A stretch of 64,000 nucleotides of DNA from Patescibacteria group bacterium. GTDB taxonomy: Bacteria > Patescibacteriota > Patescibacteriia > Patescibacteriales > JBAZCA01. The translations under genes were made by a program, and so were the position numbers. Positions 2,887 to 55,875 of the stretch are shown here, piece by piece. The stretch spans positions 3,532 to 67,531 of the forward strand of contig JBAZUF010000005.1 of NCBI GenBank assembly GCA_041661505.1. The letters run 5' to 3'. Under the pieces are notes generated by a model, which saw only the letters and a program-made list of their open reading frames with translations, made no database searches and was not told the DNA's origin. Each line of letters begins with the position of its first letter. Position 1 is the first letter of the stretch.

Positions 2887-3097
2887 ATGCGTTTTGCATT
2901 TATCTTGCCGAAATCGATCGTATTCCGGCAAAACAGGTTAGTTAATTTTTCTCGACCTTTTTTCTAAAATTTAATATATAAATTATTTATTTTTTATCTT
3001 TTCAATTTTCCTCCGCGCGTCCAGTTTCTTCTTTGCATCCTTCCTTCATGCGTGCGTCCGGCATCTGCCGTCTTTGCCTTTCCGCCCTTTTGCCTAA

Positions 3098-4447
3098 TCA
3101 CTTCTTGGGCTCATCTTCAGCCACCGGAACCATCATGTACAAATAGCTGTCCCTTCCCGGCTCACCGCCAAAAACCGGCTTGATAATGCCTGACCGCCCG
3201 GAAGGGTCGGGCGATACTTCGACCGGATCGGAAAACATGGTGTCTACTTTTTGCTTTATCTCGTCCGCCTGCTCTTTGCTTTTATAGGGAACCACTACGG
3301 CGCCAGACTCCTCTTTTTTTTCTGATAATTTTTCCGGCGCCAGACTTTCTTTGAACTCAACCGGATTGATTAGTTCGAGAAAAGAAAGATAAATATTCTT
3401 TCCGCCGTTAAACGCCCAGCCGGCCAGGCGCCGATATTCGCTCCTGAAATAATCTCCGGCCTGGCAGGCTTCTTCTTCGATTTCATTTTCTTTGGCAATA
3501 AAAATTTCCGGATTCCAGAATGATTTTTTTTCGGCGAATATTTTTTCGCCGGCTACCGCTTGGCGGGCTTCTATTCCAACTGGCGGATTTTCCGGCTGGC
3601 CGAAGACTCCGTATTTAATAATTTTAGAAATTTTTATATAGGGGTAAAGGTAAGCCGGGGCCATGGCTTTTGCCAGATGGCCGGACAAAACCGGCGCCGA
3701 AGTGGCCAGGATGTAAGCCGCGTAAACCGCCAGAACGGACGCAAGGCTTAAGCGGCCGGCAAGGCTCTTAGGTAAAATTTTCAGTAAAACCGATTTTCTT
3801 TTTTTCCTGGCTTTAGACTTTACCGCCGCCTGCGCCTCCGCGCCGCCGGTTAAAATTTTTGAGGCGATCTTGTCCGACAAATCATCTAGATCAATCGCTC
3901 CGGCCGAAGCTTGTCCCGAGCCGCGAATTCCGGAAACTCCGGGCTGGTTTCCCGGAGCGCTGGCGATAGCGGACGGGACATTAAAACCAGGGGCCAATTC
4001 CCCGCCGATTCCGGCTTGAGGAAAAAGAGCTATGGCAGTTGATTTTAATACCCGGTCCTGGGAGTGGTTTTTTAAATATTCGCCAAACCATTCGCGGGTG
4101 GAAAAATAATTTCTACCGATCTTTTTAGCCTTCAGTTTTTTCCTTTGAACCAGGTTGGATAAATAAGCCAGGTTATAGGGGCCCTCTTTGGCAAACTGGC
4201 GCAAAGGCAGAAGCTCGCGGTTAATCGGTTCGACTTCCGCTTTCTCGGAAGGATCCATTCTTCCGTGCTTTTCCAGGTACTCGGAAAACCACTGGCGCGA
4301 AGAAAAATAATTCCGGCCAATCTTCTTGGCTTTGAGCTTCTTTCGCTGAACCAGGTTCGACAAATAGGCGAGCGTATAAGGCCCGTCTTTAGCGAAGCTT
4401 CTTAGGGGTAAAAGTTTTCGATTTTCGGACAATTGGCCGGCGTTCAT
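3098..4447 (-). CDS. single-pass membrane protein with two tandem N-terminal excisionase/MerR-type HTH domains
   Basis: Residues 10-61 and 77-128 are a near-identical duplication: LLPLR.FAK.GPY.LAYLSNLVQRKKLKAKKIGRNYFS.R.WF.EYL. This fits the ..A.....S...v..lv..GkL.a.KiGR.w.......eyl pattern of HTH_17-type domains. An Ala/Gly-rich linker, a KKRK stop-transfer, a TM helix (LSLASVLAVYAAYILATSAPVL) and a ~200-aa C-terminal domain follow. Confidence 0.7.
   Translation of the reverse strand: MNAGQLSENRKLLPLRSFAKDGPYTLAYLSNLVQRKKLKAKKIGRNYFSSRQWFSEYLEKHGRMDPSEKAEVEPINRELLPLRQFAKEGPYNLAYLSNLVQRKKLKAKKIGRNYFSTREWFGEYLKNHSQDRVLKSTAIALFPQAGIGGELAPGFNVPSAIASAPGNQPGVSGIRGSGQASAGAIDLDDLSDKIASKILTGGAEAQAAVKSKARKKRKSVLLKILPKSLAGRLSLASVLAVYAAYILATSAPVLSGHLAKAMAPAYLYPYIKISKIIKYGVFGQPENPPVGIEARQAVAGEKIFAEKKSFWNPEIFIAKENEIEEEACQAGDYFRSEYRRLAGWAFNGGKNIYLSFLELINPVEFKESLAPEKLSEKKEESGAVVVPYKSKEQADEIKQKVDTMFSDPVEVSPDPSGRSGIIKPVFGGEPGRDSYLYMMVPVAEDEPKK
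4064..4420 (-). repeat. intragenic tandem duplication (2 x ~156 nt, period 201 nt) encoding the two HTH domains
   Basis: The protein repeats R10-H61 and R77-H128 differ at only a few positions. The DNA copies are clearly related but carry many synonymous differences. Confidence 0.8.
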
Positions 4448-23073: not shown

Positions 23074-23146
23074 GTCGGGGTGCCGGGAATTGAACCCGGA
23101 TTACACGAACCCGAATCGTGCGTAATACCGTTATACCACACCCCGA
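23074..23146 (-). tRNA. tRNA-Pro (anticodon CGG)
   Basis: The minus strand reads TCGGGGTG TGGTATAACGGTATTACG CACGA-TTCGGGT-TCGTG TAATC CGGGTTCAATTCCCGG CACCCCGA(C). It has a 7-bp acceptor stem, D arm, 5-bp anticodon stem with loop UUCGGGU (anticodon CGG), and a T arm with GGTTCAATTCC. CCA is not encoded. Confidence 0.9.
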
Positions 23147-24611: not shown

Positions 24612-25010
24612 CTATCTTCTATCAATTGCCTCATTCACCAGCCGGTCAGCTTCCTTATTCTTTTCTCTTGGCACATGCGTAAACTTAACCTTTTTAAAGC
24701 CCAAAGTCAAGTTGTTGATTTTCAAAAATAGCGGCGCCAAATCGGAGTTTTTTACTTTATATTCGCGTTTTATTTGCTTTACTACGAGTTCAGAATCAAG
24801 ATAAAAATCCAGTTCTTCTGCCTTGCAGGTCTTAGCTTTTTCCAAAGCGGCGATTACTGCTTTGTATTCCGCCTGATTATTAGTCGCTTCGCCGATATAT
24901 TCGGACACGGTGAACACCACCTTAGCATCTTCATCATAAGCGATCGCCCCAATCCCCGCCGGCCCCGGATTCCCCCTTGCCCCTCCGTCGGTAAATATTT
25001 TTAGCTTCAT
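24612..25010 (-). CDS. rnhA: ribonuclease HI
   Basis: Contains MKLKIFTDGGARGNPGPAGIG..NNQAEYKAVIAALE..LDSELVVKQI..HVPREKNKEADRLVNEA, with the DEDD catalytic residues in the canonical RNase H context. I prefer the start at 25010. The track start 25031 lies inside the outer arm of hairpin element A. Confidence 0.9.
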   Translation of the reverse strand: MKLKIFTDGGARGNPGPAGIGAIAYDEDAKVVFTVSEYIGEATNNQAEYKAVIAALEKAKTCKAEELDFYLDSELVVKQIKREYKVKNSDLAPLFLKINNLTLGFKKVKFTHVPREKNKEADRLVNEAIDRR

Positions 25011-25022
25011 AATTTTATATTG

Positions 25023-25210
25023 TTTTGTCATTTTATTTATGTGCGAGCCATTGAGAAAATTTAGTATTATTTTTTGTACAATTGAGGCAATAAATTTTCA
25101 CTGTTTGATCCGCCCCGTGTCAACGGGGCGGAGAGTTTGAAAATTTGTCCGTAAATTGTGCAAAAAATCTAAATTTTTTCGCAGGCGAGTGAATAAATAA
25201 AATGACAAAA
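25023..25210. repeat. long imperfect palindrome / hairpin element A (188 nt) with conserved apical core
   Basis: The outer arms 25023-25040 TTTTGTCATTTTATTTAT and 25193-25210 ATAAATAAAATGACAAAA are perfectly complementary (18 bp). Inner pairings include ATTTTTTGTACAATT/AATTGTGCAAAAAAT and AAATTTTC/GAAAATTT. The apex is CTGTTTGAT-CCGCCCCG-TGTCAA-CGGGGCGG-AGAGTT (25101-25137). Confidence 0.85.
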
Positions 25211-38772: not shown

Positions 38773-39699
38773 TTATTTCTTATTTACCGCGTCTTCTCCG
38801 TATACTCCTTTTACCAAGTCTAAATCTTTGCAGGTTTTGATAAGTAAATCCAAATTTTTTTCTTCCAGGCTTTTAATAACTTCCATCCCAAGCGGATCGC
38901 CCACCATCTTAGAGTACATTTCCCGGAAAGCGGCAAAATCTTTAATAAAGCAGTGGCCGCCGGCTCCGCGTCCGGCTTTATGGACCGGCACCATATGCAC
39001 GTCGTTATAAGCCAGTCCCGGCCGGGCTTCACCGCCTGATTCCCCGCTTTTATGGATTGGATTCAAATGGTTAGAACCGATGCGCGGATCCGCCGCCATC
39101 GCGTCCCTTACCGCTTCCCAGCGGCAACCCAGCTTTTCGGCTAAATCGTAAAGCAGGTTGATATAAATCACCTTAAAATAAAACCAGCAATTGCCTCCGT
39201 ACTTTATAAGCTCGGCTTCTTTGGCCGTGCAAACCAACTCGTAAGGGGCTTTAGGCAGGACGGCCAAAGCTTCTTTGGCTTTTTCTGTATATTCGTCATT
39301 TTGGACCGGCGAACCGATAATATTCCTGAACGGATGGGCGGCGTCGTAGGCGGCCGTGGACTCGGTTAAAAATTCCGGCGAATGAAAAATGAACTTGCCC
39401 GGATTTTCTTCCTGGATAGATTCGGTCGTCCCGGGTAAAAGGGTAGATTTTATCACTACCGACTTCCCTTCACCCGCCAGCTTAACCACACTCCTTAAGA
39501 TACTTGAATCAAAGCCTTGGGGCGTAGTCGGGGTCGGGACGGCAATGAAAACGATATCGCAATCTTTGATCTTTTCCTTGTTTTGGACATAAGGTTCTTC
39601 CATAGCGTAGCGCACGACTTGAAAACCGCGCTTTTCAAAATCATCGGCATAATTCTTGCCGATCCACCCTTGTCCGATAAATCCGATTAGTTTTCCCAT
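38773..39699 (-). CDS. UDP-glucose/GDP-mannose dehydrogenase family protein, short form
   Basis: N-terminal Rossmann IGFIGQGWIGKN and IAVPTPT. The Cys-containing block GRGAGGHCFIKD resembles the catalytic GG.C..KD motif. At 308 aa it is about 100 aa shorter than typical UGDH as I recall them. Confidence 0.65.
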   Translation of the reverse strand: MGKLIGFIGQGWIGKNYADDFEKRGFQVVRYAMEEPYVQNKEKIKDCDIVFIAVPTPTTPQGFDSSILRSVVKLAGEGKSVVIKSTLLPGTTESIQEENPGKFIFHSPEFLTESTAAYDAAHPFRNIIGSPVQNDEYTEKAKEALAVLPKAPYELVCTAKEAELIKYGGNCWFYFKVIYINLLYDLAEKLGCRWEAVRDAMAADPRIGSNHLNPIHKSGESGGEARPGLAYNDVHMVPVHKAGRGAGGHCFIKDFAAFREMYSKMVGDPLGMEVIKSLEEKNLDLLIKTCKDLDLVKGVYGEDAVNKK

Positions 39700-39719
39700 A
39701 TTTTTACTTTGTTAAATAA

Positions 39720-39884
39720 GCTTGGACAATATATGCGATTCCATTATGATTTTTAGCGCAAATTATCCGTTAAAAATAGCCGCTGTTTGACCCGCCCTTC
39801 AGGGCGGGGAGTTCGGCTATTTTAGGATAATTTGCGCGTGACAAAGGCAAAAATCATCCATGGATGAGCGTATATTGTCCAAGC
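39720..39884. repeat. long imperfect palindrome / hairpin element B (165 nt) with conserved apical core
   Basis: Pairings: GCTTGGACAATATA/TATATTGTCCAAGC (14 bp), GCGCAAATTATCC/GGATAATTTGCGC and AAAATAGCCG/CGGCTATTTT. The apex is CTGTTTGAC-CCGCCC-TTCA-GGGCGG-GGAGTT (39783-39813). Confidence 0.85.
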
Positions 39885-39931
39885 TGATAAAATTGCAATT
39901 TTAAACACTATACCTTATTATTAAATAAAGT

Positions 39932-41131
39932 ATGGCAAAAGTCAAAAAATCCGCCTCCCCGGCGGGTAAAATCCTCTACCTTATTACCCAATCCGAGCTG
40001 GGCGGCGCGCAAAGCTATATTTTTGATTTGGCTAAAAACCTTAAGGAAGAGTACGAAATTAGCGTGGCTTTTGGCCTGTCCCGCAATCGGCGGGGCGAGC
40101 CGGGCGAGGCTGGGGAGCTGGCTAAAGCCTTAAAAAGCGAAGAAATTAGCGCTTTTTTCCTACCCCATCTTAAGCGCCGTATTTGCCCTCGAAATGACCT
40201 TTGGGCCTACTTTGAAATCAAGGCTTTAATCAAAAAATTAGAGCCGGATATAATCCATTTGAATAGCTCTAAGATCTCCATTCTTGGCTCTTTAGCGGCA
40301 AGGGCAGTAAAATCCAAAAAGACCCAGATAATCTATACTGCCCACGGCTGGGTCTTTAACGAGCCTATGTCGGGGATTAAAAAAGCCTTTTACAAATGGG
40401 CGGAAAAATTTACGGCCCGTTATAAAGATAAAATAATCTGCGTTTCCGAATTCGACCGGCAAGCCGCGCTAAAGGAAGAAATCGCTCCAGCGGAAAAGCT
40501 AGTCACTATCCATAACGGCATCGGCGAAATTAATTTCTTAACTAAAGAAGATGCCCGCCAAAAATTAAATCTTCCGCCAGACAGCTTGGTAATCGGCTCC
40601 ATCGGTAATTTATATAAGACTAAAGGCTTTGAATATTTTATTGAAGCGGCCGCGAGTCTATTAAAAAGCCAGCTCTCCGGCCAAACCAAAGCCCAGGCTG
40701 GACAGACTGCGCGTTCTCCGCTCGCCTTTATCATCATCGGCGAAGGCGGAGAAAGAAAAAATCTTGAGGCTTTGATAAATAAACATCATCTGGAAAAACA
40801 GTTTATTCTGGCTGGCCGCATTTCGGACGCCTCGCGCCTTTTAAAAGCTTTTGATGTTTATGTTTCTTCTTCAGTTAAAGAAGGCTTGTCTTACACCTTG
40901 ATCGAAGCAGTTCAGGCAGGACTGCCTATAGTCGCTACCGAGGTCGGCGGCAATCCGGAGGTTTTAGCCGGTTATAGCGCTGACCTTGTTGAACCCGGCG
41001 ATTCTCAAGCCCTCGCCGAAAAAATCAGCCGCCATCTTGGGCGTCCTTTTCCAATAAAAAAAATACCCCAAGGTTTTACTCTTCGGGAAATGCTTGAGAA
41101 GACAAAAAAAATCTACGCTTCATCCTTTTAA
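39932..41131 (+). CDS. glycosyltransferase family 4 (GT-B)
   Basis: Contains ILYLITQSELGGAQ, HLNSSK and SVKEGLSYTLIEAVQAGLPIVATEVGGNPE. Confidence 0.85.
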   Translation: MAKVKKSASPAGKILYLITQSELGGAQSYIFDLAKNLKEEYEISVAFGLSRNRRGEPGEAGELAKALKSEEISAFFLPHLKRRICPRNDLWAYFEIKALIKKLEPDIIHLNSSKISILGSLAARAVKSKKTQIIYTAHGWVFNEPMSGIKKAFYKWAEKFTARYKDKIICVSEFDRQAALKEEIAPAEKLVTIHNGIGEINFLTKEDARQKLNLPPDSLVIGSIGNLYKTKGFEYFIEAAASLLKSQLSGQTKAQAGQTARSPLAFIIIGEGGERKNLEALINKHHLEKQFILAGRISDASRLLKAFDVYVSSSVKEGLSYTLIEAVQAGLPIVATEVGGNPEVLAGYSADLVEPGDSQALAEKISRHLGRPFPIKKIPQGFTLREMLEKTKKIYASSF

Positions 41132-49467: not shown

Positions 49468-49487
49468 ATCTAATATTTATCTAAGTA

Positions 49488-49619
49488 AATCCAATATCTT
49501 CTGAAGGGGTTCTTTTGGCTAAAATTGCTTGGTTCGCCCGGGGCGAAATTTTGGCCAAAAGCAGAGTAAAAATTTTCGCTGGAAAAATTTTTATGTCCCT
49601 GAAGAAGATATTGGATTTC
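49488..49619. repeat. intercistronic long hairpin element C (132 nt), structurally similar to A/B/D but lacking their core motif
   Basis: Pairings: AAATCCAATATCTTCT (49488-49503) with AGAAGATATTGGATTT (49604-49619), 16 bp perfect, and CTTTTGGCTAAAATT with AATTTTGGCCAAAAG. The apex is TTCGCCCGGGGCGAA. The right arm carries an extra AAAAATTTT..AAAAATTTTT branch. Confidence 0.7.
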
Positions 49620-49620
49620 C

Positions 49621-50412
49621 TTATCGCTTTCTCGTCCACATGCGCCTCCCCATCCTCAATTTATCCATAGAGGTGCTTTCTTCTTCGCGGATTATTTTCC
49701 CGGTCAAAGCTAAAAATGCCTCTTCCAAAGATTCGGTCTTGGTTTGTTTCTTTAAATCATCAGCCGTTCCAGTGGCGATAATTTTCCCGTGGTCGATAAT
49801 CGCGATCCGCTCCGCCATCTTTTCCGCTTCTTCCATGTAGTGGGTAGTAAAAAACACGGTGGTTTTCTCTTTTTTATTCAGTTCTTTCAGATAGTTCCAC
49901 ATGTGATTCCGGGTTTGCGGATCCAGGCCTAAGGTCGGCTCGTCTAAAAATATAATTTTCGGGTGGTGCAGAAGCCCGCGGGCGATTTCCAGGCGCCTTT
50001 TCATTCCGCCGGAGAACTCCTTAACAAAACTGTTGCGCCGATCGTCCAGTTCTACGAATTTCAAAAGCTCGTCAATTTTTTTCCGCCTTTCAATCTTCGG
50101 CACGTCGTAAAGAATTCCGTGGAATTCAAGATTTTCAAAAGCCGTCAGCTCGTCGTCCAGGCTTGGGTCCTGAAAAATAATACCAATATTCCTTCGGACA
50201 TTACTTGAGTCCTTGGCCACGTTAAATCCCGCCACATCCATTTCCCCTTTAGTGGGATTTAAAAGCGTCGTAAGCATCTTGATGGTCGTTGATTTGCCGG
50301 CGCCGTTCGGGCCTAAAAAGGCGAACACTTCCCCCTCTTTGACTGAAAAGGAAATATTATCGACAGCCGTAAAATCGTCAAATTTTTTGGTTAAATTTTC
50401 TACTTTTATCAT
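49621..50412 (-). CDS. ABC transporter ATP-binding protein (DrrA/ABC-2 type)
   Basis: Walker A GPNGAGKST, Q-loop, signature FSGGMKRRLEIA, Walker B IIFLDEPT and H-loop TTHYMEE. Confidence 0.93.
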   Translation of the reverse strand: MIKVENLTKKFDDFTAVDNISFSVKEGEVFAFLGPNGAGKSTTIKMLTTLLNPTKGEMDVAGFNVAKDSSNVRRNIGIIFQDPSLDDELTAFENLEFHGILYDVPKIERRKKIDELLKFVELDDRRNSFVKEFSGGMKRRLEIARGLLHHPKIIFLDEPTLGLDPQTRNHMWNYLKELNKKEKTTVFFTTHYMEEAEKMAERIAIIDHGKIIATGTADDLKKQTKTESLEEAFLALTGKIIREEESTSMDKLRMGRRMWTRKR

Positions 50413-51019: not shown

Positions 51020-51559
51020 TTATTTAGCCGGATTATCTTGCGTTGGCGCGGGGTTGCCCTGGACTTCGACTGAGCCTGTTGCCGCGTTTTCCGGGCGGAT
51101 TTGCACTAGCTGGGCGATAATACTGCCGTCCGAGTTGGCGGTTCCCGTAATCATCACATTTTTTCCGACGGCCATGTCATCTTTAGTGCCGTCAACTGAT
51201 TTGGAAACCGTAGTAGTGTCGGAATAATAGATTGTTTTTGATCCCGTAGCGTTGGATGACCCATTTGCACCGCTGTTCGCGTTTCCGCCATTGCCGCCTA
51301 ACTGGATAGTAATACTCTTATCATCTTTTTTTATAATCTCGCCGGCCACAAATCCGCCGCTATTTCTCATAATCCGGTTGGCGCCGCCAGTCCCCGAGCC
51401 AGAACCGGCGCCTTGGCCAAACGTGGCAAAACCGCCGCCATTCCTTTGAAAATTGGCAAACGGGCTTTTACTGGCCTGGTATTTCATTCCGCCGTAAAAA
51501 CCTGCACCGGCAAACACTATTGCCGCGACAATAGTGATAATAATTGATTTTTTGTCCAT
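51020..51559 (-). CDS. Gly/Asn/Ser-rich membrane-anchored protein, unknown function
   Basis: I place the start at ATG 51559 (MDKKSIIITIVAAIVFAGAGFYGG). The track start 51661 runs into hairpin element D and adds a non-hydrophobic extension. It has low-complexity G/N/S stretches and a small beta-rich C-terminal domain. Confidence 0.65.
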   Translation of the reverse strand: MDKKSIIITIVAAIVFAGAGFYGGMKYQASKSPFANFQRNGGGFATFGQGAGSGSGTGGANRIMRNSGGFVAGEIIKKDDKSITIQLGGNGGNANSGANGSSNATGSKTIYYSDTTTVSKSVDGTKDDMAVGKNVMITGTANSDGSIIAQLVQIRPENAATGSVEVQGNPAPTQDNPAK

Positions 51560-51568
51560 AGAATTTAT

Positions 51569-51746
51569 ATTTCTAATTATATTATGAGTGAAGCATTGAA
51601 AAATTATGGTTTGTAACGGCGTAAAAATTTTGCTACAAAATTTTACTGTTTGACCCCGCATTTGCGGGGGAGTTTAAAATTTTGTTAAAAATTTTTGCGC
51701 TGTTTCCTTAATTTTTCACCTGCAAACGAATAATATAATTAGAAAT
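51569..51746. repeat. long imperfect palindrome / hairpin element D (178 nt) with conserved apical core
   Basis: Pairings: ATTTCTAATTATATTAT (51569-51585) with ATAATATAATTAGAAAT (51730-51746), 17 bp perfect, plus TTGAAAAATTATGG/CCTTAATTTTTCAC-type pairing and GGCGTAAAAATTTT/AAAATTTTTGCGC. The apex is CTGTTTGAC-CCCGC-ATTT-GCGGG-GGAGTT (51646-51674). Confidence 0.85.
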
Positions 51747-51771
51747 TTAGCTTAACATATTAATTACACTC

Positions 51772-55725: not shown

Positions 55726-55875
55726 CTTTTTTAATTTCTATTAATGATTATTCACGTTATGCGTAATCCATTATTTTTCCATTAAAGCCTCTGGTTCGGT
55801 ATAATAACAATAACTTTCTTGGGAAAGAAAGCTATTGTCAAAATTTTAATTGTTAATTCTTTTTTCATATTAATC

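Follow-up and report, generated by a model that had tools for sequence, protein, structure and literature searches.

The 165-nt imperfect palindrome at 39720-39884 (+), here called element B, lies between divergently transcribed genes in a 64-kb stretch of Patescibacteria DNA (the window), and we put the probability that it is a copy of a non-autonomous palindromic MITE-type transposable element at roughly 60%. The family to which B belongs has a conserved, strand-specific structured core, demonstrated by covariation and strand asymmetry, and occurs in at least two bacterial phyla; some relatives have empty sites, and two subfamilies carry target duplications. Our inferences concern the type of transposase, whether the element is transcribed and the role of the core.

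Direct reading of the sequence bore out the span first proposed for B, its terminal helix (GCTTGGACAATATA / TATATTGTCCAAGC), its apex CTGTTTGAC-CCGCCC-TTCA-GGGCGG-GGAGTT at 39783-39813 and its spacing of 20 nt to the minus-strand ATG at 39699 and 47 nt to the plus-strand ATG at 39932. The palindrome itself runs approximately 2-4 nt further at the ends (arms 39716-39744 / 39860-39888), possibly from 39716/39718 to 39886/39888. Folded as RNA, the + strand, which is the motif strand, forms one long hairpin with a minimum free energy of -85.6 kcal/mol, compared with -40.5 +/- 4.1 for 200 dinucleotide shuffles (z -10.9; 0/200 as low); the - strand folds at -81.5 kcal/mol. The hairpin has the following parts.

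39737-39739 (+), basal internal loop GAU, opposite UGA at 39865-39867, giving tandem G.A plus U.U
39773-39782 (+), 5' side of the 10-bp apex-carrying helix, pairing with 39814-39823, with compensatory changes
39783-39790 (+), 5' half of the apical internal loop, CUGUUUGA, fixed by the search pattern, yet kept in copies found only by the covariance model
39791-39808 (+), inner GC-rich hairpin C-CCGCCC-UUCA-GGGCGG-G, whose closing Y-R pair covaries in the family
39809-39813 (+), 3' half of the apical loop, GAGUU
39814-39823 (+), 3' side of the 10-bp apex-carrying helix, partner of 39773-39782
39865-39867 (+), UGA, partner strand of the basal loop in the tandem G.A

At the apex, G39789/A39790 opposite A39810/G39809 are candidate tandem sheared G.A pairs on the predicted pairing.

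The original prediction had placed B in a family of long hairpins, and B is a genuine member: its apex recurs exactly in element A (at 25101) and slightly varied in element D (at 51647), on the + strand in both.

25023-25210 (+), element A, with the same apex as B and different arms, between RecJ and RNase H
51566-51749 (+), element D, a further copy, flanked by a MacB-like permease gene and a small ORF

A covariance model of the apex +/-30 nt, built from 74 dissimilar copies, scored B at 60.4, A at 58.3 and D at 51.3 bits in the window (E values of 1e-12 to 2.5e-10), and the next match in the window beyond these three reached only E 0.44. Loops equivalent to the basal loop of B are found in A (25045-46/25187-88) and D (51586-87/51728-29); each of the three elements has a tandem G.A loop approximately 17-22 nt from its ends and a second tandem G.A beside the inner hairpin. 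All three copies are antisense to the surrounding genes, and therefore the strand with the conserved structure is probably not the strand present in these mRNAs. Their arms have no close relatives among approximately 120 sampled loci, which marks A, B and D as old copies; D has an identical copy on metagenome contig L055. A small conserved peptide was rejected, because A, B and D share neither the length nor the frame of their mini-ORFs.

Inverted-repeat detection returned A, B, D and hairpin C (49482-49623) among the longest palindromes of the window. Hairpin C is a long imperfect palindrome between two ABC-transporter genes, with 27-nt arms that are 89% complementary. It is not a member of the family: the apex motif is absent, and no covariance-model match at E<=10 covers it. 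It probably represents a different palindromic repeat family. The mechanically assigned ORF starts near 25008-25031 and 51560-51661 are probably too far upstream, the ORFs running into elements A and D. From its sequence, RNase H most likely starts at ATG 25010 (ATGAAGCTAAAAATATTTACC, as in relatives) and not at 25031, and ORF 51020-51661 most likely starts near 51562. At gathering threshold, Rfam 15 matches a single tRNA gene at 23075-23145 (-) and nothing else in the 64 kb, and it has no match in 20 family loci.

Scanning metagenome and viral contigs with the pattern CTGTTTGAYCCS-N(4-24)-SGGRGAGTT gave at least 120 loci in metagenome contigs with a GC content of 28-61%, and a perfect inner hairpin, differing in sequence from copy to copy, was present in more than 100 of approximately 125 pattern matches. 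Viral contigs yielded 13 pattern matches, none with the hairpin, and these are chance matches. With the covariance model, we found 107 matches in 100 metagenome loci and 13 more in 31 further loci; approximately 15 pattern-only loci that the model left unconfirmed are chance matches, and some of the copies that it found deviate from the pattern, for instance in being closed by a G-C or G-U pair or in carrying a UUGUUUGA loop. The hallmark of the family is its apex (outer stem / CUGUUUGA / GC hairpin / GAGUU / outer stem). Elements are 165-400 nt in size and have no conserved ORF, as read from the mini-ORFs of A, B and D. Permissive Rfam 15 scans of B and the copies at L074 and L052 gave best E values of 0.7-2, to unrelated families; a distant BLAST search of a plasmid collection returned only 36-nt chance matches inside Klebsiella genes; and we found no description of the family in the literature on CPR/Patescibacteria long hairpins, kink-turns, MITEs and REP/REPIN. 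The GT4 and RecJ proteins of the window have their best relatives in named Patescibacteria; those at approximately 53-58% identity include Falkowbacteria. The family is not confined to Patescibacteria, because the GC-rich locus L139 encodes two proteins that fall into clusters with Desulfatitalea tepidiphila proteins at >=90% identity.

The family structure was set by hand and checked by pair counts, as RNAalifold on a MAFFT alignment mis-paired the apex owing to gap placement. Compensatory changes occur at 10/10 pairs of the apex-carrying helix, for which the covariation score was 0.57-0.61, compared with 0.18 for shuffled partners and 0.23-0.26 when partners were slid by one column. The closing pair of the inner hairpin is UA in 43 copies, CG in 36, GC in 2, GU in 2 and UG in 1. 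The motif strand gives the better fold in 75/90 elements, with a mean advantage of 6 kcal/mol, and G-U pairs make up 8.1% on the motif strand versus 5.1% on the opposite strand. Arm mismatches, counted on the motif strand using a strand-symmetric alignment score and leaving out the apex, are similarly uneven: G.A/A.G occurs 267 times versus 80 for its mirror T.C/C.T (p = 1e-24 for the G.A excess), G.T 155 times versus 103 for A.C, G.G 63 times versus 16 for C.C, and tandem 5'-GA/5'-GA 45 times versus once for the mirror tandem TC/TC. Under stricter de-duplication (48 elements), the counts were 193 versus 64 for G.A and 39 versus 1 for tandem GA.

The likeliest reading of the core strand is that it works as a protein-bound RNA, perhaps as a module for folding, processing or insulation. 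Single-stranded DNA hairpins also tolerate tandem G.A and G.T, however, and the RNA reading of the core therefore stays unproven. More specifically, the conserved core might be a new cross-phylum structured RNA module carried on mobile palindromes and recognised by a conserved protein, a proposal that we regard as tentative and rather unlikely. Such a module, made up of tandem G.A loops, a GC hairpin and, in certain subfamilies, a downstream hairpin able to form a pseudoknot, would act, for instance, in transcript insulation or processing, in control of the element's transposase or in an RNA-dependent step of mobilization; if real, it would explain why the tip is kept from Patescibacteria to Desulfobacterota while the rest drifts.

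Some subfamilies, although not the copies in the window, carry a second hairpin module. Directly 3' of many copies, it reads CUUGAU-U-run-NNACUUUUUU-(G)UAUCAAG(A)-AAAAAAGUNN, with examples at L052 1740-1800 (-), L081 ~3060-3110, L116, L125, L137 and L141; it has no Rfam match. An H-type pseudoknot is possible, and the loop of the hairpin can often pair with the upstream CUUGAU. The module lies downstream of the apex in 13/78 elements and upstream in 1/78, with the hairpin NNACUUUUUU-loop-AAAAAAGUNN situated 61-77 nt 3' of the apex in 12/13 downstream cases. In the window, a small hairpin, TAACTTTCTTGGGAAAGAAAGCTA, at 55811-55834 between two minus-strand ORFs resembles the second-module stem ACUUUYUU/AARAAAGU. 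Copies on the same contig mostly share a strand (11 contigs versus 3). The motif strand falls on the C-rich side, with negative GC skew, in 39/58 loci, and most coding runs opposite to it in 33/57; both biases are mild, and a linkage to replication or gene strand was rejected on these grounds.

As judged by comparing loci, the family behaves as dispersed mobile DNA with no gene-family association. The gap between RecJ and RNase H, 212 nt here, is 0 (overlap), 10 and 59 nt in the relatives L165, L166 and L167, whose RecJ proteins are 82%, 74% and 73% identical; aligned in this way, element A reads as an insertion that these relatives lack. In a young subfamily, copies at unrelated loci are 90-96% identical over approximately 165-170 nt, with homology stopping at the element ends; its termini are CAGGACTTACGCG...CGCGTAAGTCCTG, and its target duplications measure 6-7 bp (TTACATA, TAATTAA, TAAATAA and CTTTAA). 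A GC-rich subfamily of approximately 400 nt, found at L139 (contig Ga0209270_1000057), L093, L094, L143, L145 and L156, has a 19-nt terminal repeat, CAGCGATTCTAACTGAATG, and duplications of approximately 9 bp (GGCCAGCGY, GCCATTT.. and ACATCC..GA). Young-subfamily termini read CAG...CTG, with duplications of 7 or 9 bp, and the candidate termini for the family are CAGGACTTACGCG, CAGCGATTCTAACTGAATG and CAGCTTGGACAAT. For B, the target duplication is ambiguous, being AAGCT (which overlaps the palindromic HindIII-like terminus), ATAA or none, and A and D have no recognisable one. Large internal loops blur the limits of the palindromes, which defeats automatic detection of target duplications.

In one subfamily, the central 97 nt (apex plus inner arms) are 100% identical yet inverted relative to the outer arms, with L078 (2374-2470), L097 and L099 in one orientation and L064 (8322-8418) and L098 (1707-1803) in the other. 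Evidently this inner palindrome can invert, and the presumed route is recombination or template switching between the arms.

The 30 window ORFs that we scanned against Pfam have ordinary chromosomal functions and include no transposase; no transposase family is among the 25 Pfam families listed for 130 neighbouring ORFs, and no Y1_Tnp is among the proteins scanned in either set. The loci contain no widely spaced terminal-repeat pairs, and neither the window nor the sampled loci yielded an autonomous parent element. Together, the 130 neighbouring ORFs represent 182 Pfam families, none enriched; examples are DnaE, RecN, ParA and DUF72, and within the window the copies adjoin RecJ/RNase H, UGDH/GT4 and MacB. 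Orientation relative to flanking genes is mixed, with all four gene-orientation classes represented, and copy number and position differ between close relatives.

The site of B itself consists of four flanking segments.

38773-39699 (-), UDP-glucose/GDP-mannose dehydrogenase-like (UGDH-like) gene, Pfam PF03721 and PF00984, first gene of a sugar-nucleotide operon
39700-39719, left-hand remainder of the ancestral intergenic DNA, separating B from the minus-strand ATG
39885-39931, ancestral control region to the right of B, kept in all relatives aligned (L161-L163, L002 and L003)
39932-41131 (+), GT4-family glycosyltransferase gene, Pfam PF00534 and PF13439

B takes up 165 of the 232 nt (71%) that separate the divergent genes, as had been reported. 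The accompanying statement that it occupies nearly the whole promoter region is correct as a measure of length and is otherwise misleading, as B splits an ancestral region of approximately 67 nt (232 = 165 + 67) and leaves the promoter block intact. The original prediction also implied a control element belonging to this gene pair, for which it named conservation in relatives with the same pair as a test, and here it failed: B is absent from all of them (L161-L163, L002 and L003). The relatives L161, L162 and L163 keep the divergent pair and the downstream genes with gaps of only 63-89 nt. No element is present in the gap of L162 (63 nt; GT4 60% identical) or L163 (69 nt; 61%), and L161, the closest relative (GT4 70% identical), has, in an 89-nt gap, only a 17-nt palindrome, GGGCTTGATCCAAGCCC, at the position of B (L161 525-545). 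This palindrome matches the outermost bases of B, GCTTG...CAAGC (the termini of B being GCTTGG...CCAAGC), and may be the remnant, deletion or excision scar of a B-like element. Approximately 38 kb of sequence from the closest relatives contains no family member by the covariance model. In the more distant relatives L002 and L003, the UGDH/GT4 gap holds unrelated hairpins, which are of CCCACA type (L003 9868-9950, L002 9740-9806), and in L167 a hairpin of GTTATGA repeats lies between RecJ and RNase H (4247-4305). Intergenic hairpin insertions thus appear to recur in these relatives.

The block conserved among the relatives lies wholly to the right of B, comprising 39885-39931 plus the first GT4 codons. 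A consensus scan found a promoter-like TTGCAA-17-TATTAT directed towards GT4 at 39893-39921 (+), and a promoter-like TTGACT-17-AATAAT at 39945-39917 (-), the -10 of which lies in 39885-39931; we take these hexamers as putative promoters of the two genes. The first GT4 codons (AAAGTCAAAAAA; 39940-39950) are invariant at the DNA level in L161-L163, L002 and L003, the protein identities being only 46-70%, and they overlap TTGACT, a -35-like hexamer of the other strand, suggesting that a promoter lies within the start of the GT4 coding sequence. One option in the original prediction, that B is part of a 5' UTR, is plausible for one of the two genes: the conserved promoter-like block, with hexamers facing both ways, is entirely on the GT4 side, which would place B in the minus-strand operon's leader. 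If the hexamers are promoters, the GT4 leader would be untouched and the minus-strand operon would gain a leader of approximately 170 nt containing B in the non-motif orientation. The arms of B also contain mirrored, inward-facing promoter-like hexamers, TGGACA-16-TATGAT (+) and TGGACA-17-GATGAT (-), which are consensus matches only. As no equivalent pair is apparent on reading the arms of A and D, we give them little weight. Any regulatory effect of B on the two genes is probably incidental.

Among the alternatives, B could be a dedicated cis-regulator of the UGDH-like/GT4 pair, whether as a 5'-UTR riboregulator, a cruciform or an operator in the divergent promoter. Its share of the intergenic region, its end 20 nt from the minus-strand start codon, its probable inclusion in the minus-strand leader and the mirrored hexamers in its arms are what would be expected of such a regulator; its absence from relatives with the same gene pair, the unrelated genes that adjoin its sister copies, the location of the conserved promoter block outside B and the lack of an apparent hexamer pair in A and D make this quite improbable. 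A riboswitch-like leader of a gene family was likewise rejected, since copies have no constant position or orientation and their neighbours fall into 182 Pfam families. At the other extreme, hairpins are frequent in intergenic regions of Patescibacteria, with unrelated ones at the same sites in L002, L003 and L167, and B might be a chance palindrome or an ordinary intrinsic terminator. This is scarcely credible given a fold z score of -10.9 and approximately 100 homologous copies elsewhere, the latter already refuting it; moreover, no U-tract follows B or its apex, and between divergent gene starts a terminator has no role.

Two further readings concern the family as a whole. A multi-copy structured non-coding RNA gene of approximately 170-200 nt, trans-acting or self-contained and spread by duplication or horizontal transfer with mobility secondary, would account for the strongly strand-specific non-canonical and wobble pairs, the covariation, the polar placement of the second module, the strand sharing within contigs and the apex kept across phyla. 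We nevertheless consider it unlikely, because copies have no conserved promoter or terminator beside them and no Rfam family match, are oriented independently of neighbouring genes, vary in number and position among close relatives, and bear target duplications and terminal repeats, which are marks of transposition. Alternatively, the family could be REP/REPIN-like and moved as single-stranded DNA by a Y1 (HUH) transposase that recognises the apical GC hairpin and its flanks. A short GC hairpin flanked on one strand by conserved bases, strand-specific folding, a whole-length hairpin as in REPINs, and the same-strand and mild C-rich-strand biases all fit this model; target duplications of 6-9 bp do not fit HUH transposition, the GTAG/CGTC tag is absent (the GC-hairpin flanks being UGUUUGA and GAGUU), no RAYT/TnpA gene occurs in the window or among the 130 neighbours, and the arms are unconserved within a genome, leaving it very unlikely. 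Several narrower candidates for the apex were also rejected. As a promoter, its TTGAC would be the -35, but the inner hairpin, which would form the spacer, ranges in length between 12 and 30 nt; hammerhead and hairpin ribozymes, SRP domain IV, a parS half-site, an IHF site, ssoA CS-6 (TAGCG) and the type I-E CRISPR repeat fit at no more than a few bases.

In the transposable-element reading that we favour, the element would move as DNA through a transposase encoded elsewhere. B would have inserted in this lineage into a divergent control region of approximately 67 nt, with the intact promoter block and GT4 to its right and the UGDH-like operon's start codon to its left; it is most likely transcribed in the lengthened 5' leader of that minus-strand operon, in the non-motif orientation, and any effect on the two genes would be a by-product of insertion. 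The core, in which a basal helix and a tandem G.A/U.U loop are followed by covarying helices, the apical loop CUGUUUGA/GAGUU with another tandem G.A, and a GC hairpin, is present on one strand only and keeps the family recognisable. The near-perfect complementarity of the arms in old copies could reflect selection for structure or template-switch 'quasipalindrome correction'.

For annotation, the long intergenic hairpins seen here in Patescibacteria are better not taken for locus-specific regulators. At least this family is mobile DNA, able to separate a promoter from its gene and to push neighbouring genes apart, as between RecJ and RNase H (0 to 212 nt). Among bacterial MITE-like repeats, it is unusual in conserving its centre and not its ends, in having a structure on one strand and in occurring in very different hosts. 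If the core is a protein-bound RNA, it would represent a widespread class without an Rfam match; if D. tepidiphila carries the GC-rich subfamily, the core could be tested experimentally in a named species.

Compared with known systems, the B family most resembles palindromic MITEs, for which we took ERIC/IRU of enterobacteria, Correia/NEMIS of Neisseria, RUP of pneumococcus and Nezha of cyanobacteria as the comparison set. Like these, its members are small (150-400 bp), non-coding, intergenic and dispersed, have no transposase of their own, have terminal inverted repeats and, in young copies, target duplications, form long hairpins when transcribed, and can land in promoters, leaders and operon junctions. 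Specifically, elements of 165-400 nt without a conserved ORF carry terminal inverted repeats (shown above for B and for the subfamilies with CAGGACTTACGCG and CAGCGATTCTAACTGAATG) at dispersed unrelated loci, with empty sites in relatives for A and B; two other subfamilies show clear target duplications, of 6-7 bp and ~9 bp, the one of B is ambiguous, and no autonomous element with the same termini was seen among the 30 window and 130 neighbouring ORFs. The likeness is one of features; no sequence similarity was noted. Conservation of the centre with termini and arms that vary between subfamilies is the reverse of the classic MITE pattern and counts against this assignment; the core, with its tandem G.A, is also tied strongly to one strand, the hosts include at least Patescibacteria and a Desulfatitalea-like deltaproteobacterium, and its duplications are of 6-9 bp, not the TA of Correia. 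ISAs1-family insertion sequences have ends of CAGGG and duplications of 8-10 bp (ISfinder family table). The subfamily termini of the B family similarly begin with CAGG, CAGC or CAGGG next to 7- or 9-bp duplications; no ISAs1-type transposase or full-length element was found, and this link is a lead from family traits. With REP/REPIN and RAYT, the B family shares extragenic palindromes, a short GC hairpin with conserved flanks, a whole-unit hairpin and long genomic persistence, and it differs in having target duplications, no GTAG/CGTC tag, no RAYT seen and dissimilar arms within a genome. As in kink-turns and box C/D motifs, which are bound by the L7Ae family, GAU opposite UGA gives a G.A, A.G, U.U core near the base and at the apex; by inspection, however, the 3-nt bulge is missing or misplaced, the basal loop being a symmetric 3x3 and the apex having its extra CUG at the far end, so that the canonical order of stem, bulge and tandem G.A/A.G is not found. 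Finally, integron attC sites combine conserved R''/R' base boxes with a variable tip in cassette arrays, whereas the B family has a conserved tip, and its copies in the window lie 2-15 kb apart among housekeeping genes.
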